DNA of 64,000 nt, taken from a phage. Under the pieces are notes generated by a model. That model did no database searches. It was not told where the DNA came from and saw only the letters and a program-made list of their open reading frames with translations. Location: assembly GCA_025832235.1 (NCBI GenBank), contig GCA_025832235.1_3649.1, one strand, 5' to 3'. The position numbers and the translations under genes were made by a program. This document shows positions 2,365 to 51,286 of the stretch, in pieces (position 1 is the stretch's first letter; the number at the start of each line of letters is the position of its first letter).

Positions 2365-2646
2365 ATGAAAAAGATTAACAGTAGTGAAGTCGAGTTTAAA
2401 CTTGTCGGAAAAGGCACTTACTGGGAAGTTCGTCAAAAGGTATATTTGTTCGGTCTTATTCCTTACTGGTCTAAATTCTACTGGGGAGCTAACGAGTGGG
2501 GAAGATACGCCACCAAATCAATGGCACTTATTGGTATAGCAGAGTACATTGCAGCCAGAGATAGGGTTGGAGACACTTATTACTATACTGCGGACGATAT
2601 TCGTAACAGTGTTTACGTCCCACAACCACCTGATGGAGACCGTTGA
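2365..2646 (+). CDS. hypothetical protein
   Basis: ORF track 2359..2646 (TTG); ATG at 2365 is 7 nt after GAGGGAG. Confidence 0.55.
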   Translation: MKKINSSEVEFKLVGKGTYWEVRQKVYLFGLIPYWSKFYWGANEWGRYATKSMALIGIAEYIAARDRVGDTYYYTADDIRNSVYVPQPPDGDR

Positions 2647-2870
2647 TGAAAGTTAAAGTTTTAGATTCGAGCTTCTATATTGGTCAGGAGCCCTTAGTGG
2701 GGAAAGTGTTTACTGCTGTCCCTAACGAAGATTACCCCGACCTTTTAAAAATAAAAGGGGCAGATCTTATTGCCGCTGGTGCATCTCAGGAATGCTTTGA
2801 CAGTCAGTGGACCTACAACTTTGCCCTAGGTGAGGATGTAGAGATAGTGGAGGACAATCATGAAGGTTAA
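2643..2870 (+). CDS. hypothetical protein, small early family A (MKVK-LDS...GADLI-AGA)
   Basis: ORF track; paralogous to 2860..3114 (shared MKVK(V/I)LDS, GKV, GADLI(A/T)AGA, acidic VE tail). Confidence 0.6.
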   Translation: MMKVKVLDSSFYIGQEPLVGKVFTAVPNEDYPDLLKIKGADLIAAGASQECFDSQWTYNFALGEDVEIVEDNHEG

Positions 2871-3114
2871 AATTCTTGATTCTAACGTCTACTTGGGACA
2901 ATCCTTCCTGAAGGGAAAGGTCGTTCCTGCGGTATACTTTGAAGGGTTGCCGTGGGATGATCCTGTTCGGCAACATCACAGTTATGTAGGCCACAACGTA
3001 GTGTTTATCTTAGGAGCAGACCTGATCACCGCTGGTGCACCTGAATATTATTTCGGGGAAGAGTCCTATTATGCCTTTGGGGTAGGGTCAGATGCAAATA
3101 TTGTAGAGCTGTGA
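2860..3114 (+). CDS. hypothetical protein, small early family A paralog
   Basis: ORF track; paralog of 2643..2870. Confidence 0.6.
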   Translation: MKVKILDSNVYLGQSFLKGKVVPAVYFEGLPWDDPVRQHHSYVGHNVVFILGADLITAGAPEYYFGEESYYAFGVGSDANIVEL

Positions 3115-3126
3115 TGGGTAACCGTT

Positions 3127-3525
3127 GTGAAAAATAAACTGTTTAAAGTTACAATGAAAATTCGCGGAGCTTGGAGCATAAAGCAAGGGCGTATTCCAGA
3201 ATTTGAGAAAGACTTCTACGTAGTCTCCACCTCGGAGGAGGCTGCATGCTGGCAAGCTGGCTATGCCTATGCAAGAACCTGGTACGAAGGATACCAGACT
3301 GGGGGCTATGACGGAGAAATTATCAGCAAGGGTGTAGAAGAAATTAATGTGTTGACAAGTGAAAAAGTTTTTGTTATAGTGCATCCAGATTCCAGAGTGA
3401 AGCATTACTGGAATGCCAGAACAAAAACTTGGACACCGTTTGCAGATTCTGCTACACCACTTTTAAACCAGAAAGCTCTTGACTCTGTCCCGAGCTATGG
3501 GGTTGTTGAAGAAAAGCTAAACTGA
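3127..3525 (+). CDS. hypothetical protein, family B (HYWNARTKTWTP motif)
   Basis: ORF track; paralogous to 5332..5727 (YYWDVLNNEWTP). Confidence 0.6.
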   Translation: MKNKLFKVTMKIRGAWSIKQGRIPEFEKDFYVVSTSEEAACWQAGYAYARTWYEGYQTGGYDGEIISKGVEEINVLTSEKVFVIVHPDSRVKHYWNARTKTWTPFADSATPLLNQKALDSVPSYGVVEEKLN

Positions 3526-3542
3526 AACAGTGGGGTACTAAC

Positions 3543-3833
3543 ATGATGGATTTAGTTCTGGACACTGATAACACCGGAGCGTTTAAAAAGGATGGTGTAA
3601 CAAGCGTTGACCAATCCTTCCCTGCCAAGATTGACTCAAAATGGACCTACAAGTTTGATGGAGAGATCTTCGCAAATGATGAGAAGGTTGTAGATGCTGC
3701 AGCCATTTTGAACGCTCTAGGGTACGACCCTGTGAATTCTTTGATCAAGGATCCTGTTGAGTTTGCAGAGTATGTTCGAAAAATGGCAGATCTTGCTGTG
3801 GATATTTTAAAAACTATCGACAACAATCTGTAA
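3543..3833 (+). CDS. hypothetical protein
   Basis: ORF track. Confidence 0.55.
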   Translation: MMDLVLDTDNTGAFKKDGVTSVDQSFPAKIDSKWTYKFDGEIFANDEKVVDAAAILNALGYDPVNSLIKDPVEFAEYVRKMADLAVDILKTIDNNL

Positions 3834-3839
3834 AAACTG

Positions 3840-3868
3840 TTGACACAACGCTTCAGATTTAGTATCAT
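3840..3868 (+). promoter_or_regulatory. sigma70-like promoter (TTGACA-N17-TATCAT) for the HPF-like gene
   Basis: TTGACA at 3840-3845, 17-nt spacer, TATCAT at 3863-3868. Confidence 0.5.
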
Positions 3869-3876
3869 TGTTTTCA

Positions 3877-3897
3877 AAGAGGGTTTGGTTCCCTCTT
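3877..3897 (+). promoter_or_regulatory. 5'-UTR stem-loop (AAGAGGG-7-CCCTCTT) followed by CTTT; possible dual terminator/leader hairpin
   Basis: Perfect 7-bp inverted repeat between promoter -10 and SD of 3916 gene. Confidence 0.45.
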
Positions 3898-3915
3898 CTT
3901 TAAAAGGAACACGTT

Positions 3916-4233
3916 ATGCAAATTGAAATCACTGGCAACGTAGAAATCACTGAAGGTATGGTGTCTTTCATTTCCAACAAAATGTCTAAACTGGAGCGTT
4001 TGCACCCCTCTGCCAACTATGCACGTGTGAGTGTAAAAGTTGAAAATGATCACCAGGAAGTTATGGCGTTCATTTTTGACAATTCTGGAAAAGAAGTTAT
4101 TGCCAAGGCTAAAGGTAGTGATGCTTACGAGGCAACTGACCGTATGGTAGATGTTGCAGCACGTCAGCTGGCTAAATGCGGTGGAAAGAAAGGTAAGGGG
4201 AAAGGCAAAGTAAAGATTGACTTTGGAAAATGA
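3916..4233 (+). CDS. hpf: ribosome hibernation-promoting factor / YfiA (RaiA) family homolog
   Basis: 105 aa; MQIEITGNVEITEGM...KLERL...VSVKVE...AKGSDAYEATDRMVDVAARQLAK parallels E. coli HPF (MQLNITGNNVEITEAL...KLEQY...VLKVE...AEGQDMYAAIDGLIDKLARQL) recalled from memory; Lys/Gly-rich tail; own promoter and SD. Confidence 0.75.
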   Translation: MQIEITGNVEITEGMVSFISNKMSKLERLHPSANYARVSVKVENDHQEVMAFIFDNSGKEVIAKAKGSDAYEATDRMVDVAARQLAKCGGKKGKGKGKVKIDFGK

Positions 4234-4242
4234 GGTGCTACA

Positions 4243-4344
4243 ATGGGTGTGATTAAGAAATTAGTCCCAAATGTAGAGATTGCATGCTTTGAAATTATGT
4301 TTGCAATCGCAGTTGTAGTTAATGTGTTAGGTTACGGCTATTAA
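4243..4344 (+). CDS. small hydrophobic peptide (33 aa)
   Basis: Hand-translated MGVIKKLVPNVEIACFEIMFAIAVVVNVLGYGY; GAGGTG SD 6 nt upstream. Confidence 0.35.
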   Translation: MGVIKKLVPNVEIACFEIMFAIAVVVNVLGYGY

Positions 4345-4370
4345 TATCAAATAATTGAGGAGACCTCTAA

Positions 4371-4640
4371 ATGAAAATTAAATTATTCAAAACTGAGCTG
4401 GCAGACAAAAACTGTGGACTGGTTGAAGGCATGATTGTTGAAGCACAACCAGTGGACTATATGAAGGTGGTTCGTGATGCCCTGGGTGAAGGTTTTGATC
4501 TGATGGAGCCAGCTCTGCGAGAAGATGTTATCGAGATGGCTAAAAAGCACACACCTGAAGGTTTGGTGGTGTTTGTTGCACCGGGTAACGGAGAAGAATT
4601 GATTGTAACTCCTGATGTGTATGAGATTGTAGAGGAATAA
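4371..4640 (+). CDS. hypothetical protein (acidic C-terminus ...VYEIVEE)
   Basis: ORF track; SD GAGGAG; C-terminal motif shared with 5000..5332, 5807..6064 and 6065..6415. Confidence 0.6.
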   Translation: MKIKLFKTELADKNCGLVEGMIVEAQPVDYMKVVRDALGEGFDLMEPALREDVIEMAKKHTPEGLVVFVAPGNGEELIVTPDVYEIVEE

Positions 4641-4731
4641 TCCTGCTTGGATTAGCATACTTCCTCGATAAGGAAGATTTGTAATTATTTGTGGGAAAGG
4701 AATCCCAATCTCTTACCAGAGGTGATACTAT

Positions 4732-4995
4732 ATGATTGTTTATTTTAAAACTTCAGGTGGATACCCTGATTCTCAAAGCTTGATCGGAAAAACGTGCACA
4801 GCATACTCACCTCTTGATGAGGAGGTAAGCGATATTCTACGAAATATGTATCGGATTGACCCCCAAGAAGCCTTTGATCAAAACCTTGTATTTGTCAAGG
4901 GTTCAGATATGAAGTCTTTGGGAGCATTCCCTGAAGCAGATGATGATGCCGTTTATTCGTTCATGACTCCTTTTGAAGCTATGGTTGTTGGGTGA
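4732..4995 (+). CDS. hypothetical protein
   Basis: ORF track; SD GAGGTG upstream. Confidence 0.55.
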   Translation: MIVYFKTSGGYPDSQSLIGKTCTAYSPLDEEVSDILRNMYRIDPQEAFDQNLVFVKGSDMKSLGAFPEADDDAVYSFMTPFEAMVVG

Positions 4996-4999
4996 TAAT

Positions 5000-5332
5000 A
5001 TGAAAGTACGCTTTATTGGTGAAACAATTCCTGTGCATCTCCGGTCTCCTGAGGATTCTGCAGATCTTGCATCTCAAAAGGCGAGAGGTTATGATAAGAA
5101 AGTAACCTCAACCGATGTAGTGCTTGAGGCTACCAGTCTACCTGACCCTGCTGCATTCTTTAATCATTATGGGTACTATTTCAGCAATCTGATGAATATC
5201 GGTGAGCTTGTGTTTATTAGTGGTGGAGAGATTGTTAGCAAGCTTGGCGGCGATCCAGATGTCTTTCATGAAACCTGTCCTTTTGCATTTGTGGTAGGTT
5301 CAGATGTGGAAGTTATTGAGGAGGTGCGGTAA
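5000..5332 (+). CDS. hypothetical protein (C-terminal ...VGSDVEVIEEVR)
   Basis: ORF track 4973..5332; in-frame ATG at 5000 avoids overlap with upstream gene. Confidence 0.5.
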   Translation: MKVRFIGETIPVHLRSPEDSADLASQKARGYDKKVTSTDVVLEATSLPDPAAFFNHYGYYFSNLMNIGELVFISGGEIVSKLGGDPDVFHETCPFAFVVGSDVEVIEEVR

Positions 5333-5727
5333 TGGTAAGCCTATACCGTGTTGAGTATAGCTCAGATACTGTATACAACGTAAGAAGCAAAGATCGCAGC
5401 GACAGAGTGCAAGAAATGTATGTTCTTGCCGACAGTCCGTTATCTGCAGCGTTCAAGGCAGGGGCTCTTGCATCTCGTTGGAAATTTGAAGGGGGATCTT
5501 TCTATGAAGAAACCCTTGAAGATTCTGTTGTTATTTCTTCTGTAGAGGTTTCAGACGACTACGAAGGGAAAAAGTTCGTAATGCGGCACCCACACAGCAA
5601 CATTGCGTACTACTGGGATGTTCTGAACAACGAGTGGACCCCAGATCTTCAGAAGGCTACTGTGCTAACACCGTTTTTGGCAGATAAGTTCCCACCAGAA
5701 GGTAATTTATCCGCACTGTTTCAGTAA
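5332..5727 (+). CDS. hypothetical protein, family B paralog (YYWDVLNNEWTP)
   Basis: ORF track; paralog of 3127..3525. Confidence 0.6.
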   Translation: MVSLYRVEYSSDTVYNVRSKDRSDRVQEMYVLADSPLSAAFKAGALASRWKFEGGSFYEETLEDSVVISSVEVSDDYEGKKFVMRHPHSNIAYYWDVLNNEWTPDLQKATVLTPFLADKFPPEGNLSALFQ

Positions 5728-5745
5728 TTTTCTTGCACACAGGTG

Positions 5746-5776
5746 TTGACAACGCCAACCCTGTGTGAAATAATAC
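5746..5776 (+). promoter_or_regulatory. sigma70-like promoter with -35 TTGACA embedded between an 8-bp inverted repeat (CACACAGG/CCTGTGTG)
   Basis: TTGACA 5746-5751; AT-rich -10 region AATAATAC 5769-5776; IR arms 5736-5743 and 5760-5767. Confidence 0.45.
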
Positions 5777-5806
5777 CTTCATCTTAACAAGACAGGAGAC
5801 CGATTG

Positions 5807-6064
5807 ATGAAGATTAAATTGAAAAACCTTGAAACGGCAGAGATTCAGGACGGTGTTGATTTCCGTTCTAAAGATGGTGACATCTTAGAGGTAAATATTC
5901 CAACCTACGAGCTGATTAAAGGTTTTGGCAACGTTCCGGAAGAGGATATTACAGAAATTCTTATGATGTTGATTCTTGACGGAACTGTGTTTGTAGGTGA
6001 AGGTGAGAACGCTATTGCAATCCCAGGCCATTTTTATGAAGTAGTTGACGAAGAGGTGCTGTAA
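5807..6064 (+). CDS. hypothetical protein (C-terminal ...FYEVVDEEVL)
   Basis: ORF track (TTG 5804); ATG 5807 after SD CAGGAGA. Confidence 0.6.
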   Translation: MKIKLKNLETAEIQDGVDFRSKDGDILEVNIPTYELIKGFGNVPEEDITEILMMLILDGTVFVGEGENAIAIPGHFYEVVDEEVL

Positions 6065-6415
6065 ATGAAAGTAGAAATTACCGGTTTTGATGTGAATGTG
6101 GTTCCGGAAGATATTTTAGCTAAACTTCCAGAAGGTTTTGGTAACGGCGTTGTGGTGGATGCTGTTCCTCCTACCAAAGACATTCTGCTGCAGTATGGTG
6201 TAGCAGAGGAAGATGTCGATAAAGTTCTTACAATGATGGCAATCGATCGTGTTGTCGTTGTTAAAGGTCTCGATAATTTTGAGAGTGATCCCCTGATTAT
6301 TCGTGGAGATGACTACAAAATCATCGATAATGAAGGCCAAGAGTTCTATGAACCTTGTGCAGAAGATATTCTTAACTTATTACTGGAAGCAGGTACCGAA
6401 GAGGAGGACGAATAA
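6065..6415 (+). CDS. hypothetical acidic protein
   Basis: ORF track; tightly coupled to neighbours. Confidence 0.6.
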   Translation: MKVEITGFDVNVVPEDILAKLPEGFGNGVVVDAVPPTKDILLQYGVAEEDVDKVLTMMAIDRVVVVKGLDNFESDPLIIRGDDYKIIDNEGQEFYEPCAEDILNLLLEAGTEEEDE

Positions 6416-6744
6416 TGAAGATTGACCCGTTACTGAAGGCTCGTGCAGAAAAAGCGTACACCATTAAGCTGACCAACCTGGTTCCTACTTGTCATCCAGA
6501 TGTAGGTTGGCCTGAAGGTCTGGTAGAGGGGACTGTAACAGCTGCATACCTCCCTAACATCAAATACCTTATGGAAATCTTGGAGCTGGATGAGGAAACG
6601 GCAGAAGAGTTCCAGTTGGACATGAAACAAAGTGGGACTCTGGTTATTCACGGGTGGTATAATACTAAAGACGCAGAAGACCCTCTGGTAACTTCTAATC
6701 TGGCATATGAAATCTTAGGGCCTTTGAACCTGGAGGAAGACTAA
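6415..6744 (+). CDS. hypothetical protein
   Basis: ORF track; ATGA overlap with upstream gene. Confidence 0.6.
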   Translation: MKIDPLLKARAEKAYTIKLTNLVPTCHPDVGWPEGLVEGTVTAAYLPNIKYLMEILELDEETAEEFQLDMKQSGTLVIHGWYNTKDAEDPLVTSNLAYEILGPLNLEED

Positions 6745-7031
6745 TGAAAGATCTGGTTAAGATTAAGATTAAAGATACCAATGGAGAACTCAGCCATTTT
6801 GGAATTAATGATGGTGACGAGCTGATCGCACACCTGCCTACCAAGGAGGTTGTAAGCAAAGCAGTTGCCGGAGAAGAAGCTGCAATGCAGGCTGCAGGTG
6901 TGGATGAAAACTATGTAGCTATGTGCATGTGCCGAGATCAGGTTGTTCTGTATAAAGCGTATCGACCAAACGGAGCCACGGAGTGGCTTGTATTCCGACC
7001 CGAAGGATATGAAATCTTAGAGGCACTATGA
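6744..7031 (+). CDS. hypothetical protein
   Basis: ORF track. Confidence 0.6.
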   Translation: MKDLVKIKIKDTNGELSHFGINDGDELIAHLPTKEVVSKAVAGEEAAMQAAGVDENYVAMCMCRDQVVLYKAYRPNGATEWLVFRPEGYEILEAL

Positions 7032-29101: not shown

Positions 29102-29430
29102 GCTTCCTCGTCGTCTAAGTAATCATCAAGAGAGGTGAAGATTTCACCGAAGTATTCTAAGATTTCTAGCTCACGTGTGGTGCAGCAAACATAATCTCCT
29201 TGGTCGTCCTTAATAGTGGCCTCTTTACCCAGAATATCTACTTCAAGTTCATCGTTCAACAGGACGGCCCCTGTGTAAACTTTGTCAGCTGTGCAGTCCC
29301 GAAAAGCAGAGTCCTTCTCCAGATAGTCTGGCTTAACCTTGGCTTTAATTCGTTGATATTGTTTGGTCATTGCTGTGGTCCCCTTTCGTTTTGATAGGGC
29401 CATTATAGTAGGCCCTATCACTGTTGTCAA
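29098..29430 (-). CDS. hypothetical protein, Cys-motif family (D-AF-DCT ... DDQGD-V-CT)
   Basis: ORF track; paralog of 29434..29688. Confidence 0.55.
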   Translation of the reverse strand: MTTVIGPTIMALSKRKGTTAMTKQYQRIKAKVKPDYLEKDSAFRDCTADKVYTGAVLLNDELEVDILGKEATIKDDQGDYVCCTTRELEILEYFGEIFTSLDDYLDDEEA

Positions 29431-39488: not shown

Positions 39489-40855
39489 ACGTCCCCCTCT
39501 TCGGCTCTGGTTTCAAAATCTTTCCTGACAATTTTGTCTAAGTCAGGGAATGTTGTATTGTAAAACTCTACGACTCGCGGGTCAACAATAATGTCAACTT
39601 CTCTTAGTGGACGCAACAAGTTTATTCCTTGTATCGTCTTAACTCTACTCAAAGCGACATACGTCATCCCAGGAGAGAAAGCTCCGTTCTTTCCAAGGTC
39701 CAGGTTGTAACAATCTAGCGTAAGTCCTTGACTTTTATGAGATGTTACGGCGTACCCAGATTTCAGAGGGAGTTGCTTGTATGATCCAATCACTACCCTC
39801 TCTATAAACTTCTCCATCTTCCTTTCTGCAATGTTGTATCTTTGAGATGGCTTATACTCGTTATTCTCCCACAACCTTTGTTCTATGTCAACCTGTGTTC
39901 CATCTTCAAGCTCCACCACCACCGCCTTGTTCTTAAATTTAACAATTGTGGCACGTGTTCCGTTAACATAATAAGGTACTTTGTGCGTCGGGTCAACATC
40001 GTTGGCGGTTATCATAACTTTCATGCCAATTTTCAACTTCATCTCCTGCTCAACTGGCAAGGTGGAGGGAAACTTACCCTTCATTTCACCAGTGTATACC
40101 TTCTCTGGGGCGTTGATGGCATCATAGAACCTTCTGTTCACTTCCTCTGCTTGTTTGTTGGTGGCGCAAATTGTGAGAGCGTCTGTTGGTACACCTCCTT
40201 TGTAACAGCGAGCATTAAGTTCTGCTACAACCTCTTTTATACGACGACCCTCACGAACACAGTTGAGCATTGTAGCAAATCGAATAGACTCCTGTCGGAA
40301 CTGATCTATTAGGGCTATGTTGTGGAGGTCAAGCTCTTTCCAAGATTCGGTATAGCAACACAAGTCCGTATGGTAGAAATTGAAGTAGGCTTCCTTCTCC
40401 ATAGAAGAGACAACAGGAGGTGCCTGGTAAAAATCGCCAAACAATATGACCTGTATGCCTCCGAAAGGTTTGTCATTTTTTCGAAGGAAGCGGAGTTTCC
40501 TATCCATCTCTATAAACTTATCAGCACGGATCATAGAGATTTCATCGATAATTAGGATGGTAAATGCCTTGCTCTTCAAAGGCTTTGCTGTTTTTGCCCT
40601 TATTGCGGTCCAGTCTGACTCCATGCTCACACCTGCTGCAAGATCGAAGGTTCGGTGTGCTGTTGCTCCATTAACGTTTAAAGCGGCTACCCCTGTCGGG
40701 GCAACCGTTATGCAAGAGTCTCCATACATTGACTGGATCATGTTGATGAGGTACGTCTTCCCACAACCTGCGGGTCCTGAAACGAAGACATTCTCACCGC
40801 TCATGATTGCAACGAGGGCAGCATCTGTGCCTACATCATACTGCCCTTTTTCCAT
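39485..40855 (-). CDS. dda: SF1B DNA helicase (Dda/RecD/Pif1-like)
   Basis: Walker A GPAGCGKTY; Walker B ILIIDEISMI; AVTSHKSQGLTLD; YVALSRV. Confidence 0.8.
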   Translation of the reverse strand: MEKGQYDVGTDAALVAIMSGENVFVSGPAGCGKTYLINMIQSMYGDSCITVAPTGVAALNVNGATAHRTFDLAAGVSMESDWTAIRAKTAKPLKSKAFTILIIDEISMIRADKFIEMDRKLRFLRKNDKPFGGIQVILFGDFYQAPPVVSSMEKEAYFNFYHTDLCCYTESWKELDLHNIALIDQFRQESIRFATMLNCVREGRRIKEVVAELNARCYKGGVPTDALTICATNKQAEEVNRRFYDAINAPEKVYTGEMKGKFPSTLPVEQEMKLKIGMKVMITANDVDPTHKVPYYVNGTRATIVKFKNKAVVVELEDGTQVDIEQRLWENNEYKPSQRYNIAERKMEKFIERVVIGSYKQLPLKSGYAVTSHKSQGLTLDCYNLDLGKNGAFSPGMTYVALSRVKTIQGINLLRPLREVDIIVDPRVVEFYNTTFPDLDKIVRKDFETRAEEGDV

Positions 40856-42060
40856 TACGCCTCCTCGTAAAGAATGTCGATAGTGTTACCATCACGGTCA
40901 ACCACGTATTCAATCGGATCGCCATCTTTGCGTGATTCCGGTGCTGCTACGATTTCGTAGCGGCATGCACGGCACTTAGCACTGTTGTGTTGGTATGGCA
41001 CACTAACCACATCCGCAGGGTCAACCATAACCATCATTACGGTGCCATAGCCCGCTGCATACTCTTTGCTGGCGCAGTGCAGGCCATAAGAACACGCAGC
41101 TTCCGGATCATCTTCTACAAAGTTACGAGGCATGGATACAAAAGCACCCTGGTATTGTGGAACTTTACCGCTGTGCCAATCCACCCACTTGCTTCCGTTA
41201 AACTGAACCCCCTTATAGCAAATGATTCGACCATCTTCTGCAACCTGGATGTCATTAGCCTGCATGAAATCGTAGAGCATGTTCACAGATTTTGCAGACG
41301 GGTTGCGTAGCAGACGGACAAGGAATTTAACATATCGGTCGTCCAGTGTTCCATCTATATAATCTTCCTCAATTTTCTTTGCAATGGTAGATTGCATCTC
41401 TACACCGTAGTAATAGAGCTTACCATCTTTCATAATCAGGTTGTCTGCAAGTGTAGTGAACTCATTCTTGCGTTCCAACCAGACAAGGATTTCACCAATT
41501 GCCTCGTCATATTCCTGAACAGAGATATGGTCGAAGACTTTCTGGTAAACTTCCTCACTTTCGCTGCGGCGAATTTCAAAAATGCCTTCGTTGCAGGTGA
41601 TCTGGAGGAGTTCCCCACAAATAACCACCAAAGGCTCGATGTTTCGAGTCTGTTGCTGAGACACACTGCTCACCACCTCCAGCACCGGATCTTTGACTTC
41701 TACTAAAGGTTCTTCTGACTTGATTGCCACCCCAGTGAACCCCACACCGTGAACAACACACAGTGGGTATACCACGCCCCAACGTTTAACGGAACCTTCG
41801 CCTAAATCTAAGATCATAGCGTACTTACCGTTATCTTCCAGACCGTATCGAAATAAACGGGCCTCTTCGCGGGTTTCAAAATCCTCACGGGTGTAGCAGA
41901 CGCTGTCACGGTCAGGATTGAACAACTCTGGGGCACCAACTGCCAGTGTCCAGGTTGTGTCGCCTTTCTCAATGGCACATGTGAAACCCTTCTTCTCAAG
42001 TTCTGCACGGCGGTCTCGTGCTTCTTTACGGGTTTTGAAATGTTCGTAGATGAAAATCAT
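40855..42060 (-). CDS. rIIB: rIIB-like protein
   Basis: Immediately downstream of rIIA-like gene (T4 order); SAKSVNMLYDFMQANDIQVAEDG and MPRNFVEDDPEAACSYGLHCASKEY...VDPADVVSVP...NSAKCRACRYEIV parallel T4 rIIB as recalled from memory. Confidence 0.6.
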   Translation of the reverse strand: MIFIYEHFKTRKEARDRRAELEKKGFTCAIEKGDTTWTLAVGAPELFNPDRDSVCYTREDFETREEARLFRYGLEDNGKYAMILDLGEGSVKRWGVVYPLCVVHGVGFTGVAIKSEEPLVEVKDPVLEVVSSVSQQQTRNIEPLVVICGELLQITCNEGIFEIRRSESEEVYQKVFDHISVQEYDEAIGEILVWLERKNEFTTLADNLIMKDGKLYYYGVEMQSTIAKKIEEDYIDGTLDDRYVKFLVRLLRNPSAKSVNMLYDFMQANDIQVAEDGRIICYKGVQFNGSKWVDWHSGKVPQYQGAFVSMPRNFVEDDPEAACSYGLHCASKEYAAGYGTVMMVMVDPADVVSVPYQHNSAKCRACRYEIVAAPESRKDGDPIEYVVDRDGNTIDILYEEA

Positions 42061-42070
42061 CTTGGTCTCC

Positions 42071-44053
42071 TTATTTGATGTTATTCTTTGTATCGATCAG
42101 CTCACGGTATTCAATCATAGCAGGGGTGTCCCAATATTTCAAGCCCACATGCTTCAAAAGTGGATATTTCTTTTCCAATCTTGCAATATAGGCCTTCCCG
42201 CACTTAACCCGGTTGGTGATTAAGATTTTGGCACGATGATTTAGCTCACTGTGCTTCCACGCGGTGTTACCTTCCCACTTGTGGAAATGTGGCCGATAAT
42301 TTCCAAAATCCTGCATGGGGATAATTTTCCCTAATTGTCTATACAAGCTGTCATATGAAGTTTCATTTGCTGCGCGAGTCAGTAAGAATTTCCAAGCATC
42401 CTCTTTCAACAAATGTTCCACATTCTTCTCTGTAACATACTGGCAATCAGGATCAGTCCAAAGCAGACGAGATTCTGATACCAAGTACAGATCTTCACCT
42501 TCAGGAATCTGGAGTGCAGCACGCACACGGTCATAATTTTGCTGGTAGATGTTACTCAGCTGTCCCAGCCAACAACTTCCACGTTGGATATCACCCTCAT
42601 AAGGAATGCAGTGCTTAATCTTCTTGAACTCTGCCTTAGTAATACGTTCACGACGGAAGTAACCATCCTTCTCAAGCTTTTTAACCCAATAACCTGGCTC
42701 GTAATGAGTTTTTGTTTCACCTTTCTTCGCAGGTCGGCGAGGGAGCTCTGATAACAATTTGACAGTATCTGCAAAGAACGGATGGTGTGCCGCCTCTTTA
42801 AACTCTTTCACCAGATCCGTGTTCCGGCAATAGAAAACGTTGCGTCCGGTGATTTCGCTTAAGTAGTTACACTTATTTCGGTTATATTTGCCGTCTCCGT
42901 CGTTAAATACAAGGTATACACCTCGTAAGAACTCCGACTTTCCGTAACAAGCGTAACCTATGCGGCCTTTATTTAAGCCGCCAGCGAAGATCTCACAGTC
43001 CCCCAAATTTCCTAGGCCTGTCTCTTCCCATCGTTCCCACATAAAATTCTTACCGAAGATGTGCCCGAACACTCCACTGTTCTTCATCATCTCGCGTGCT
43101 TCTGAGGATGTTTTTGCTGTCTCCAATTCCGCAACAACTTCTGCCCCACGTAAACGGATACCCTCTTTGACAAAAGCCTCCAGGCGATCCTGGAATCCAC
43201 CGTCGTCATGGCCCTCTATGGTCCATTCGCGCCCAGGGTTAATATTGCAATCCCCAATAGGAATCTCTACACAGATTGCAGGGTAGTCTGTCAATGTTTC
43301 CAGGAATTTAGATCGGTAAGGTTGGTGACCCATTACCACGCGACTCTCGTCAGAGCTGGTATAACCTTTCAGGATAGTCATTTTCCAACCATCTTTCTCG
43401 TAGCGATACTGAGCCTCAACCTTGTCACCTTCCAGCATCTTACTGGTCATAGGGTCGGTAACGGTAAACGGAAACTTTGCATAGCGTAGGCATGACGCAA
43501 TAGCAGTGCGATATTTCAGAACATGCTCTTTCTTAACATGGAACTGAACTTTTACCCCGTTGTGCTCTTCAGTCTTCCGCTCGCGGATCTTGGTAACGTT
43601 TGGGATACCCTGATCCAAGAACAATAGATATGTGCTTTCAACACCGTTGTGCACACTAATCACATCGAAAGTGTCCACCATGCTGAACGGGGCCTTTGAA
43701 CCTACACCTTTATTACCTACCAGAGCGTTGCTGTTGCGCTTGGTTGACTCCCCGAGGTTCATGAAAGTGTTGCGGACCATCTCTTCTGACATACCCAATC
43801 CAACGTCCTGCACAAAGAAGTATGGTTCAAGGTCTGTAGGAGAGTGAATGATGATCGGTACATCACCCCGTCCAGACTCAACATGGGAGTCCACAGCATT
43901 GAAGATTGGTTCACGGCAGCTTGCCAGCACCTTATCTTCGTAAATCCCTTTAATGATTAGCCCAAAAGTCTCTTTGTTCAGAGAAATTGAGCCCCTGGTG
44001 ACCTCCATATTTCCGGTCAGCACTGCTTTAGTTTCATTACTGTTTACAATCAT
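42071..44053 (-). CDS. rIIA: rIIA-like protein (N-terminal GHKL/HATPase domain)
   Basis: Bergerat-fold motifs: N-box IFNAVDS, G1 VQDVGLGMS, G2 VGNKGVGSKAPFS; 660 aa; upstream of rIIB-like gene. Confidence 0.7.
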   Translation of the reverse strand: MIVNSNETKAVLTGNMEVTRGSISLNKETFGLIIKGIYEDKVLASCREPIFNAVDSHVESGRGDVPIIIHSPTDLEPYFFVQDVGLGMSEEMVRNTFMNLGESTKRNSNALVGNKGVGSKAPFSMVDTFDVISVHNGVESTYLLFLDQGIPNVTKIRERKTEEHNGVKVQFHVKKEHVLKYRTAIASCLRYAKFPFTVTDPMTSKMLEGDKVEAQYRYEKDGWKMTILKGYTSSDESRVVMGHQPYRSKFLETLTDYPAICVEIPIGDCNINPGREWTIEGHDDGGFQDRLEAFVKEGIRLRGAEVVAELETAKTSSEAREMMKNSGVFGHIFGKNFMWERWEETGLGNLGDCEIFAGGLNKGRIGYACYGKSEFLRGVYLVFNDGDGKYNRNKCNYLSEITGRNVFYCRNTDLVKEFKEAAHHPFFADTVKLLSELPRRPAKKGETKTHYEPGYWVKKLEKDGYFRRERITKAEFKKIKHCIPYEGDIQRGSCWLGQLSNIYQQNYDRVRAALQIPEGEDLYLVSESRLLWTDPDCQYVTEKNVEHLLKEDAWKFLLTRAANETSYDSLYRQLGKIIPMQDFGNYRPHFHKWEGNTAWKHSELNHRAKILITNRVKCGKAYIARLEKKYPLLKHVGLKYWDTPAMIEYRELIDTKNNIK

Positions 44054-49804: not shown

Positions 49805-51286
49805 ATGGCCCCTTCTGGAGTTTTAATGGATAGCAGAAGTTCAGAAATCATTACCGCACAAAAAGATGATGCCTTGCGAATGCTGCAGGCCGCTCGCATG
49901 TACCTTCTTGAAAAGCTGCCGTTTTATGGCACACTGTTGTCAGGGTTGCAGTTCGTAGAAAACCACACATGGTGCTCCACCATGGCAACAGACCATAAAC
50001 GCATCTACTACAGCCCTGAGTTCATTATGGGGTTGGCAGATGAGCGTAAAACCATTCTTAAAGCATCTCTGACTGACAAGCAGTTTGAGATGGCTGAGGT
50101 TTTCTATTCCCCAAAATCTGTGAAAGAGGTGGCCTTTCTTCTGTCACATGAGGTGGGGCATATTATCTGTGATCATCTGGTCCGTGGTAAAAGCTTTGAG
50201 CCGGAACTGTTCAATATTGCTTGTGATCACGTTATCAACACAGGTCTTGTGGTTGACTTTAGCAAGCCTCCTTGTGTTTTCTTCCCGAAGGGGAAAAGCA
50301 CTGAGTTCGTAAAAGGTAAGCCTTTTGGCTTCTTAGCTAATTGCTACTGCGACATGAGGTTTCATGGATGGATTGCTGAGAACGTCTATGCAGTTCTTGA
50401 TAAACAAAGAGATCAGAATGGCGGTAAAAGTAAGAACGGTAAAGGTGAGAACTCCCAAGGAGATAAACGACAAACCGATGATCACATGAGCGGGAACGGT
50501 GGCACTAGTGATGATCTTGGAAAGGCTATGGGGTATGATCAGCCGCAACCAGTAATCAGTCAATCTGACAAAGATCAGGCCATGCAGGACTCTGGTGACA
50601 TGTTGGAAGCAGCAATGCAAGCTTCAGGAGGTCGTTGCCCCGAGGCGGTGCGCGAGTTTGTCAAAAACAGAGGCAAGCCTGTAATCAATTATATAGATAT
50701 TATTAAGCAACGTATGTTATCTAAAAGAAAGGCTGAGTTAACCTACAGAAAACCTGGTCGCCGATCTGGGTCTTTGACCACCACAATGCGAAAAGTTGGA
50801 GCTATAAACAAGAATCAACACGTTATTGTTCCTGGTCGTAATCCGGAAAACACTATAGATATTGTAGTGGCTTTAGACGTTTCTGGGTCGATCTCACAAA
50901 GAACTTTAAAGAAAATGTTCAATGAGATCACCGGGTTGTGCAATTTGTATAAAGAGTTTAAGGTTACTATGTTCTGTTGGTCAACGGAGGTTGGAGAGGT
51001 TAAAGTATACACTCGCGGTAACATCGATGAGATGATTAACTATGAGGTCCACTCAACATGGGGCACAACAGCCGCCTGCGTGTTCGAGTATCTGGATGCT
51101 AACATACCGAATGCAAAAGATGTCATCGTCCTTACCGACCTCTACTTTGAGCATAACTTTGAACAAAAGGCTGTTGACAACAAGTGGAAAAAGTACGATA
51201 CTTTATGGGTTCTCACCGAAGGGTATAATAAAAATTATATCCCGAGCTTTGGGAAAACTGTGGAATTAATCGAGTACGCTAAGTAA
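49805..51286 (+). CDS. VWA-domain protein with N-terminal zinc-metallopeptidase-like HExxH motif
   Basis: SHEVGHIICDH (HExxH); VWA MIDAS-like IVVALDVSGSIS; 493 aa. Confidence 0.6.
   Translation: MAPSGVLMDSRSSEIITAQKDDALRMLQAARMYLLEKLPFYGTLLSGLQFVENHTWCSTMATDHKRIYYSPEFIMGLADERKTILKASLTDKQFEMAEVFYSPKSVKEVAFLLSHEVGHIICDHLVRGKSFEPELFNIACDHVINTGLVVDFSKPPCVFFPKGKSTEFVKGKPFGFLANCYCDMRFHGWIAENVYAVLDKQRDQNGGKSKNGKGENSQGDKRQTDDHMSGNGGTSDDLGKAMGYDQPQPVISQSDKDQAMQDSGDMLEAAMQASGGRCPEAVREFVKNRGKPVINYIDIIKQRMLSKRKAELTYRKPGRRSGSLTTTMRKVGAINKNQHVIVPGRNPENTIDIVVALDVSGSISQRTLKKMFNEITGLCNLYKEFKVTMFCWSTEVGEVKVYTRGNIDEMINYEVHSTWGTTAACVFEYLDANIPNAKDVIVLTDLYFEHNFEQKAVDNKWKKYDTLWVLTEGYNKNYIPSFGKTVELIEYAK

Follow-up and report, generated by a model that had tools for sequence, protein, structure and literature searches.

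The closest described relative of the gene treated here is ORF144 of phage rV5 (ABI79209), which has been annotated since 2006 as a sigma-54 modulation factor in the rV5 GenBank record (DQ832317), with the promoter P144 at the same upstream site. In the study of Mizuno et al. (2019; PMC6375957), this protein was named phage HPF and was placed among the gammaproteobacterial sequences in the phylogeny. When it was expressed from pBAD24 in E. coli, mass spectrometry detected its peptides in the crude extract, the C-terminal VKIDFGE included, and no phage HPF peptides were detected in 70S and 100S ribosomes purified under high salt; nor was there any discernible change in 100S on expression in these growing cells. 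The possible reasons given by the authors for the missing binding are the growth phase, the salt washing or a genuine loss of binding, and they also proposed that viral HPF may compete with the cellular factor and thereby prevent dimers. The hpf annotation was repeated by Mathieu et al. (2020) for five rV5-like isolates. In the literature search, no functional study of a phage HPF later than 2019 was found, and vequintaviruses are not mentioned in the Paride dormancy paper. Across the records, the gene goes by the names 'sigma 54 modulation factor', 'ribosome hibernation factor', 'hpf' and 'RaiA' (the last in several RefSeq records), and in MT884009-MT884011 and OR062525/28/30 it is misannotated as 'ATP-dependent protease La type I'.

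As for the cellular factors, YfiA has a flexible C-terminal extension that overlaps with the site of RMF and by which dimerisation is prevented (review PMC13152769), and the basic ribosome contacts common to HPF and YfiA are only four, namely K80, R83, K87 and K91 (preprint 10.1101/2025.10.07.680626). According to Mizuno et al. (PMC6375957), the S30AE protein of the phage GAP32 was acquired independently.

The DNA analysed here is a stretch of 64,000 nucleotides from a phage (contig GCA_025832235.1_3649.1; hereafter the window), for which an HPF/YfiA-family gene with its own promoter had been predicted. The phage HPF gene and its promoter were already known; that is to say, the observation is accurate but not new. 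What is added by the present analysis is the distribution of the gene, the selection acting on it, its divergence from host HPF, the residue replacements, the tail and the lack of support for the leader hairpin.

The HPF-family gene and its predicted product

The gene is a Vequintavirus (rV5-type) homologue of the short, gammaproteobacterial-type HPF. Its product has the length and the sequence quoted in the original prediction, and it is read from the plus-strand ORF listed in Table 1 together with the other features of the locus.

Table 1. Features of the HPF locus, numbered from the first nucleotide of the window
Feature	Position	Strand	Description
Sigma-70-type promoter TTGACA-N17-TATCAT	3840..3868	+	11/12 consensus match; equals P144 of rV5
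7-bp stem-loop AAGAGGG / CCCTCTT	3877..3897	+	-9.9 kcal/mol; predicted transcript 5' end
Shine-Dalgarno site AAGGAA	3904..3909	+	Read from sequence; 7 nt from AGGA to ATG
HPF ORF	3916..4233	+	105 aa, read from sequence
HPF/YfiA-family core domain (residues 1-88)	3916..4179	+	PF02482 over residues 3-88; aligns to E. coli HPF 1-89
Phage-specific basic Lys/Gly tail (residues 89-105, GGKKGKGKGKVKIDFGK) and stop codon	4180..4233	+	From pLDDT, charge and conservation
33-aa hydrophobic ORF, equivalent of rV5 ORF145	4243..4344	+	phrog_15151, E = 3.7e-26
89-aa ORF, equivalent of rV5 ORF146	4371..4640	+	phrog_11868, E = 4.5e-61
Terminator-like hairpin and T-rich tail (CTTCCTCGATAAGGAAG ATTTGTAATT)	4660..4686	+	Consensus scan only; tentative

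First of all, the HMM search against PF02482 (Ribosomal_S30AE) that had been proposed places the phage protein above the curated cut-off (48.9 bits against 23.7, E = 1.1e-12, profile positions 1-83 of 88), and the HPF/YfiA family model TIGR00741 is exceeded as well (46.1 bits against 40.9). Of the two NCBIfam equivalogs, the short HPF model NF007780 gives 56.2 bits, well under its cut-off of 125, and the RaiA/YfiA model NF007654 gives 18.2 bits, under its cut-off of 158. The closest sequence relatives in the PDB are the E. coli HPF chains (2rql, 4v8h, 6h4n; E of about 1e-11 over residues 1-89), and YfiA chains are reached by phmmer at E = 0.17-0.23. Among the PHROGs, the match to phrog_12469 (3.9e-70) stands against 9e-7 for phrog_8990.

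The AlphaFold2 model, which was built on 24 sequences, has a pLDDT of 84.6 and the beta-alpha-beta-beta-beta-alpha order (E2-7, H13-29, E33-42, E47-55, E60-67, H70-88). Its top Foldseek match is 6h4n_x, that is, HPF in the E. coli 100S ribosome, with an RMSD of 1.1 A over 89 residues and a TM of 0.87, so that the proposed structural comparison with HPF/YfiA ends in agreement of the predicted fold. At E <= 0.001 in the PDB, all 35 matches are HPF, YfiA, protein Y or related hibernation-factor chains; weak structural matches to double-stranded-RNA-binding domains (dsRBDs), e.g., Staufen and Loqs, were also returned. With a family match and a related fold both in hand, the assignment to the HPF/YfiA family stands. 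It had also been claimed that the product shows the pattern of E. coli HPF from end to end; this is borne out for residues 1-89/91, at 42% identity, but not for residues 89-105, which have no counterpart in E. coli HPF.

All the invariant or nearly invariant columns of the family are kept in the phage protein: G7, T12, K22, A63, D69, Y71 and D75. For the ribosome contacts, the positions given in a recent cryo-EM study (preprint 10.1101/2025.10.07.680626) were transferred to the phage protein and are cited by their E. coli numbers. Of the basic track on helix alpha-2 by which 16S rRNA is contacted (K80, R83, K87 and K91), the phage protein keeps R83, K87 and K91, and D75 is kept too; among the further host-HPF contacts, K26 and E60 are kept, and Q29 is changed to R. 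Five contacts are replaced in both phage lineages (the second of which is described below): K80 by V/T, T53 by F/R, H55 by F, Y30 by L and R33 by S/T. Position 80 is V in the vequintavirus copy and T in the second lineage, and it is K in 14 of the 18 non-phage sequences aligned. The beta1-alpha1 loop shows an in-frame one-codon difference among the phages: V18 (L008, NC_041937.1, 301-621) has GNNVEIT like E. coli HPF and thus 106 aa, and the other vequintavirus copies examined have GNVEIT.

In addition to the core, there is the Lys/Gly tail of residues 89-105, which is predicted to be disordered in the model (residues 91-98 have a pLDDT below 50). The net charge is -2 for the core and +6 for the tail. 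Across the genus, the tail sequence is almost invariant; in the second lineage, the tail is also basic but differs in sequence, and both lineages end in K-[I/W]-D-[F/Y], and this ending, seen in two lineages only, may be a short docking motif. The folded C-terminal dimerisation domain of long HPF (about 185 aa) is absent from the 105-aa phage protein.

Transcription signals and gene neighbourhood

The promoter claimed in the original prediction consists of TTGACA (3840-3845), a 17-nt spacer and TATCAT (3863-3868); it is present and conserved, and the rV5 record lists it as 'Sigma70-type promoter; P144'. In the seven rV5-like genomes compared, TTGACA is kept and the -10 element is TATCAT or TATTAT, and in the second lineage, whose HPF is 64% identical, the TTGACA -35 is kept and is followed by TGn-AATTAT. 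Over the 64 kb, seven sigma-70 sites matching at least 11/12 positions lie on the plus strand and nine on the minus strand, against about 0.75 expected per strand from first-order Markov simulations (about 10-fold enrichment). Since these sites far exceed the Markov expectation, the HPF promoter belongs to a real, enriched set, and five of the seven plus-strand sites fall in the first 10 kb. Two perfect TTGACA-N16/17-TATAAT sites occur, at 29430 and 23727, both of them on the minus strand. Within the 3' part of the HPF gene there is a further promoter-like site at 4217-4244 (TTGACT-16-TACAAT, 10/12, with TG upstream); as a promoter of the 33-aa ORF it was excluded, since its -10 overlaps the ATG of that ORF, and it is left unassigned.

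The leader hairpin is made up of AAGAGGG (3877-3883), a 7-nt loop and CCCTCTT (3891-3897), and it would stand at the very 5' end of a transcript predicted to start near 3875. Compared with shuffles, the 61-nt leader stretch is no more stable (z = -0.09). In L007, L008 and L009, the GAGGG of the 5' arm is changed to GAGAG without any compensating change, and the second lineage is without a segment of about 26 nt that bears the 3' arm and AAGGAA, GAGGG itself being the Shine-Dalgarno site there. An Rfam search of the leader gave no match. On all four counts, the hairpin was rejected as a conserved regulatory RNA; that is to say, the hairpin that had been claimed is indeed present in the sequence, but its role as a conserved functional element is unsupported. 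The AAGGAA Shine-Dalgarno site was found with the position and spacing given in Table 1, in line with the claim made for it, and is invariant in all seven rV5-like genomes compared.

The HPF gene is followed by two further ORFs. The 33-aa hydrophobic ORF starts 10 nt past the HPF stop, and its equivalent is annotated as a CDS in rV5, DrSchubert and V18; it is probably co-transcribed with HPF. The 89-aa ORF, for which there is no Pfam match, is probably the final gene of the transcription unit, which would then run on through both ORFs to the terminator-like site. This extent was inferred from the gene spacing and a weak terminator consensus match, and the nine terminator-like sites in the region, against 8.0 expected from shuffles, are not above expectation.

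In the first 10 kb of the window, in which the HPF gene lies, essentially all substantial ORFs are small plus-strand genes without assigned function. The ten neighbouring genes give no functional clue: all ten belong to PHROGs of 'unknown function', and none has a Pfam match. The HPF unit is flanked on both sides by paralogues of about 131 aa (3127-3525 and 5332-5727; both phrog_7379), and several other small acidic ORFs in 2643-7031 look interrelated; for example, phrog_5009 matches both 2860-3114 and 4732-4995. Elsewhere, an RIIB-like and an RIIA-like gene adjoin on the minus strand (40855-44053), and a 493-aa HNH endonuclease gene lies on the opposite, plus strand (49805-51286). No tRNA genes were found within the 64-kb window.

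Distribution, selection and origin

The window belongs to Vequintavirus: over 2 kb, its identity is 99.8% with the phages pangalan and MaxTheCat and 97.4% with rV5. The HPF gene was found in 119 phage records, compared with 118 records that carry the genus-type primase/helicase at 95% identity or more; it is present in essentially all records of the genus. In the sister genera (PVP-SE1, 4MG and BIS47 types, with helicases 53-56% identical), no HPF match was found by tblastn at E <= 1e-5. Eighteen MG0656xx records labelled 'UNVERIFIED: Campylobacter phage' are classified as Vequintavirinae and share 95-98% identity with rV5-like phages of E. coli; for example, L009 (MG065684.1, 28425-29282) matches window 3000-5000. 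The Campylobacter host labels of these records are probably wrong.

A second lineage is formed by uncultivated contigs of 125-137 kb (L002-L005, from Logan ERR6997038_58, ENA ERZ16268152 scaffold_272 and others), which carry a 64%-identical HPF of 103 aa in the same gene order, with HPF at 4001-4312 and, in L002, the tail at 4265-4309. At the DNA level, about a third of 8 kb can be aligned to known phages, with 73-76% identity, and no close match to this lineage was found in a collection of 50,697 phage records. A search of IMG/VR for further divergent lineages gave only two more rV5-type copies, at 93-95% identity.

Within the genus, dN/dS is 0.03-0.13 (Nei-Gojobori, pairs with dS > 0.05), with the exception of the pair rV5-L010, which has a value of 0.18 and five differences; against the second lineage, dN is 0.30 and the synonymous sites are saturated. 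Purifying selection on the phage HPF is strong.

When 1.84 billion representatives were scanned exhaustively with HMMER, only 23 hits at E <= 1e-3 were obtained, and the closest cellular relative among those representatives is at most 45% identical. The suggestion of Mizuno et al. that the gene was captured recently from E. coli is not supported: the phage protein has only 42% identity to host HPF and no more than 45% to any cellular representative. Because dN/dS is low and no cellular relative exceeds 45% identity, the phage HPF is, as judged from sequence comparison, an old, divergent and maintained phage branch. Two of the scan matches may be described separately. The second-best, P0006 (1160 aa, with eight matched stretches), is a PPC-domain repeat protein, and the match is spurious. 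The cellular P0013 (289 aa) has an S30AE (HPF) domain fused to a PTS EIIA-2 (PtsN-like) domain; the two component genes adjoin in the rpoN operon, and it may be either a true fusion or a read-through gene call.

Possible roles and comparison with known systems

The explanation that we consider reasonably likely is that the phage HPF is an early protein acting at the HPF/YfiA site of vacant host ribosomes. The gene would be transcribed by host RNA polymerase early in infection, an expectation drawn from the conserved host-type sigma-70 promoter. The protein would then dock, like HPF and YfiA, in the tRNA/mRNA channel between the head and body of the vacant 30S or 70S by means of the kept basic track of alpha-2 (R83, K87, K91) and D75; the disordered Lys/Gly tail would add non-specific contacts to rRNA and may reach toward the mRNA exit/RMF region, as the tail of YfiA does. 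The net effect would be that idle host ribosomes are held as protected, inactive 70S, or that host hibernation is reset to the benefit of the phage. This explanation is favoured by the family scores, the fold, the conserved columns, the three of four basic contacts, the dN/dS values, the distribution, the second lineage and the promoter. Against it stand the five host-HPF contacts replaced in both phage lineages, the score far under the HPF equivalog cut-off (56 against 125) and the consideration that a general ribosome silencer made early would hit phage translation as well. It is also opposed by the published result that rV5 HPF is not present in salt-washed 70S/100S and does not change 100S (PMC6375957), whose weight is softened by the salt washing of the ribosomes and by their origin from growing cells.

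The replaced contact set of both lineages, together with the acquisition of a basic, disordered tail that terminates in K-[I/W]-D-[F/Y], may also indicate a specialised offshoot of short HPF, which would serve as a YfiA-like antagonist of RMF/HPF dimerisation or as a shield of the decoding centre against host ribonucleases. In the shielding variant, these ribonucleases might be released during infection or abortive defence. Such an offshoot is a tentative idea to which we give small weight; if it is true, a lytic phage gains control over the host hibernation state.

The same replacements bear on the idea of Mizuno et al. that the protein is an anti-hibernation decoy, that is, a weak or reversible competitor of host HPF, YfiA and RMF at the same site, which would prevent or dissolve 100S and so leave ribosomes free to translate phage mRNAs, above all where the host grows slowly or is stationary. 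This hypothesis, stated in PMC6375957, agrees with the same fold and partly kept contacts, the changes at K80, T53, H55, Y30 and R33 being ones that could weaken binding, and with the fact that rV5 HPF is not retained on salt-washed ribosomes. YfiA blocks RMF and dimerisation by its C-terminal extension (PMC13152769), and the phage protein has an added tail; however, this basic, Lys/Gly-rich tail shows no sequence similarity to that of YfiA, and the small 100S fraction was unaffected by expression in E. coli (PMC6375957). On balance, we regard a decoy role as unlikely.

If the five replaced contacts and the negative ribosome association test (PMC6375957) are instead read as loss of the original target, the HPF fold could have been neofunctionalised to bind not the decoding channel but another RNA or a host protein, since the fold resembles a double-stranded-RNA-binding domain and a host protein might be recognised via the basic tail and K-[I/W]-D-[F/Y]. 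The weak dsRBD matches (Staufen, Loqs), the conserved phage-specific terminal motif and the divergence of a branch without any cellular relative above 45% identity in 1.84 billion representatives are in keeping with such a change. This is quite improbable, however: none of the family-invariant residues has been lost, three of the four basic contacts common to HPF and YfiA are kept, the RMSD to ribosome-bound HPF is 1.1 A, and a factor that is not stoichiometric is tested harshly when the ribosomes are salt-washed.

That the gene is a functionless host-derived passenger, or the 'sigma-54 modulation protein' of its historical name, is hardly credible: many records carry the old 'sigma 54 modulation factor' label and the gene sits among small genes without assigned function, but the reading is contradicted by the selection and conservation data (dN/dS of 0.03-0.13; maintenance in 119 records and, at 64% identity, in the second lineage), the 42% identity to E. 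coli HPF argues against a recent capture, and the family owes its sigma-54 name to the position of the gene in the rpoN operon, with no demonstrated activity behind it.

Carrying its own hibernation factor is a real means by which a lytic phage may interfere with the translation apparatus of its host. The residue differences listed above and the phage-specific tail provide concrete mutants and constructs for settling its activity.

Among the known systems, rV5 ORF144/ABI79209 is the same gene, with 98% amino acid identity (103/105) and the same position, promoter and neighbours; the two proteins differ only in the substitutions H21N and, at the C-terminus, E105K. The GAP32 protein of Cronobacter phage (AFC21633, phrog_8990) is also phage-encoded and of the same Pfam family but falls in a separate PHROG, and no GAP32-type S30AE protein was recovered by tblastn at 1e-5 from the window gene. 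E. coli YfiA/RaiA (protein Y, 113 aa) resembles the phage protein in having the N-terminal fold with a flexible C-terminal extension; they share 21-24% identity in structural alignments, and their tails are unrelated in composition, that of the phage being basic. The phage protein is much closer to E. coli HPF than to YfiA (phmmer E = 6e-12 against 0.17; 56 against 18 bits). With the short HPF of E. coli (YhbH, 95 aa; 2rql, 4v8h, 6h4n), it shares the core fold, the core length and 42% identity (39/92). Compared with this host factor, the phage protein has a one-residue deletion in the beta1-alpha1 loop (GNVEIT against GNNVEIT) and a 17-residue Lys/Gly tail in place of KDKLKQH, and no 100S-promoting activity was seen for the rV5 protein (PMC6375957). 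The setting of the two genes differs as well: the phage copy stands behind a constitutive-type sigma-70 promoter in a lytic phage, whereas the host gene lies in the rpoN operon.
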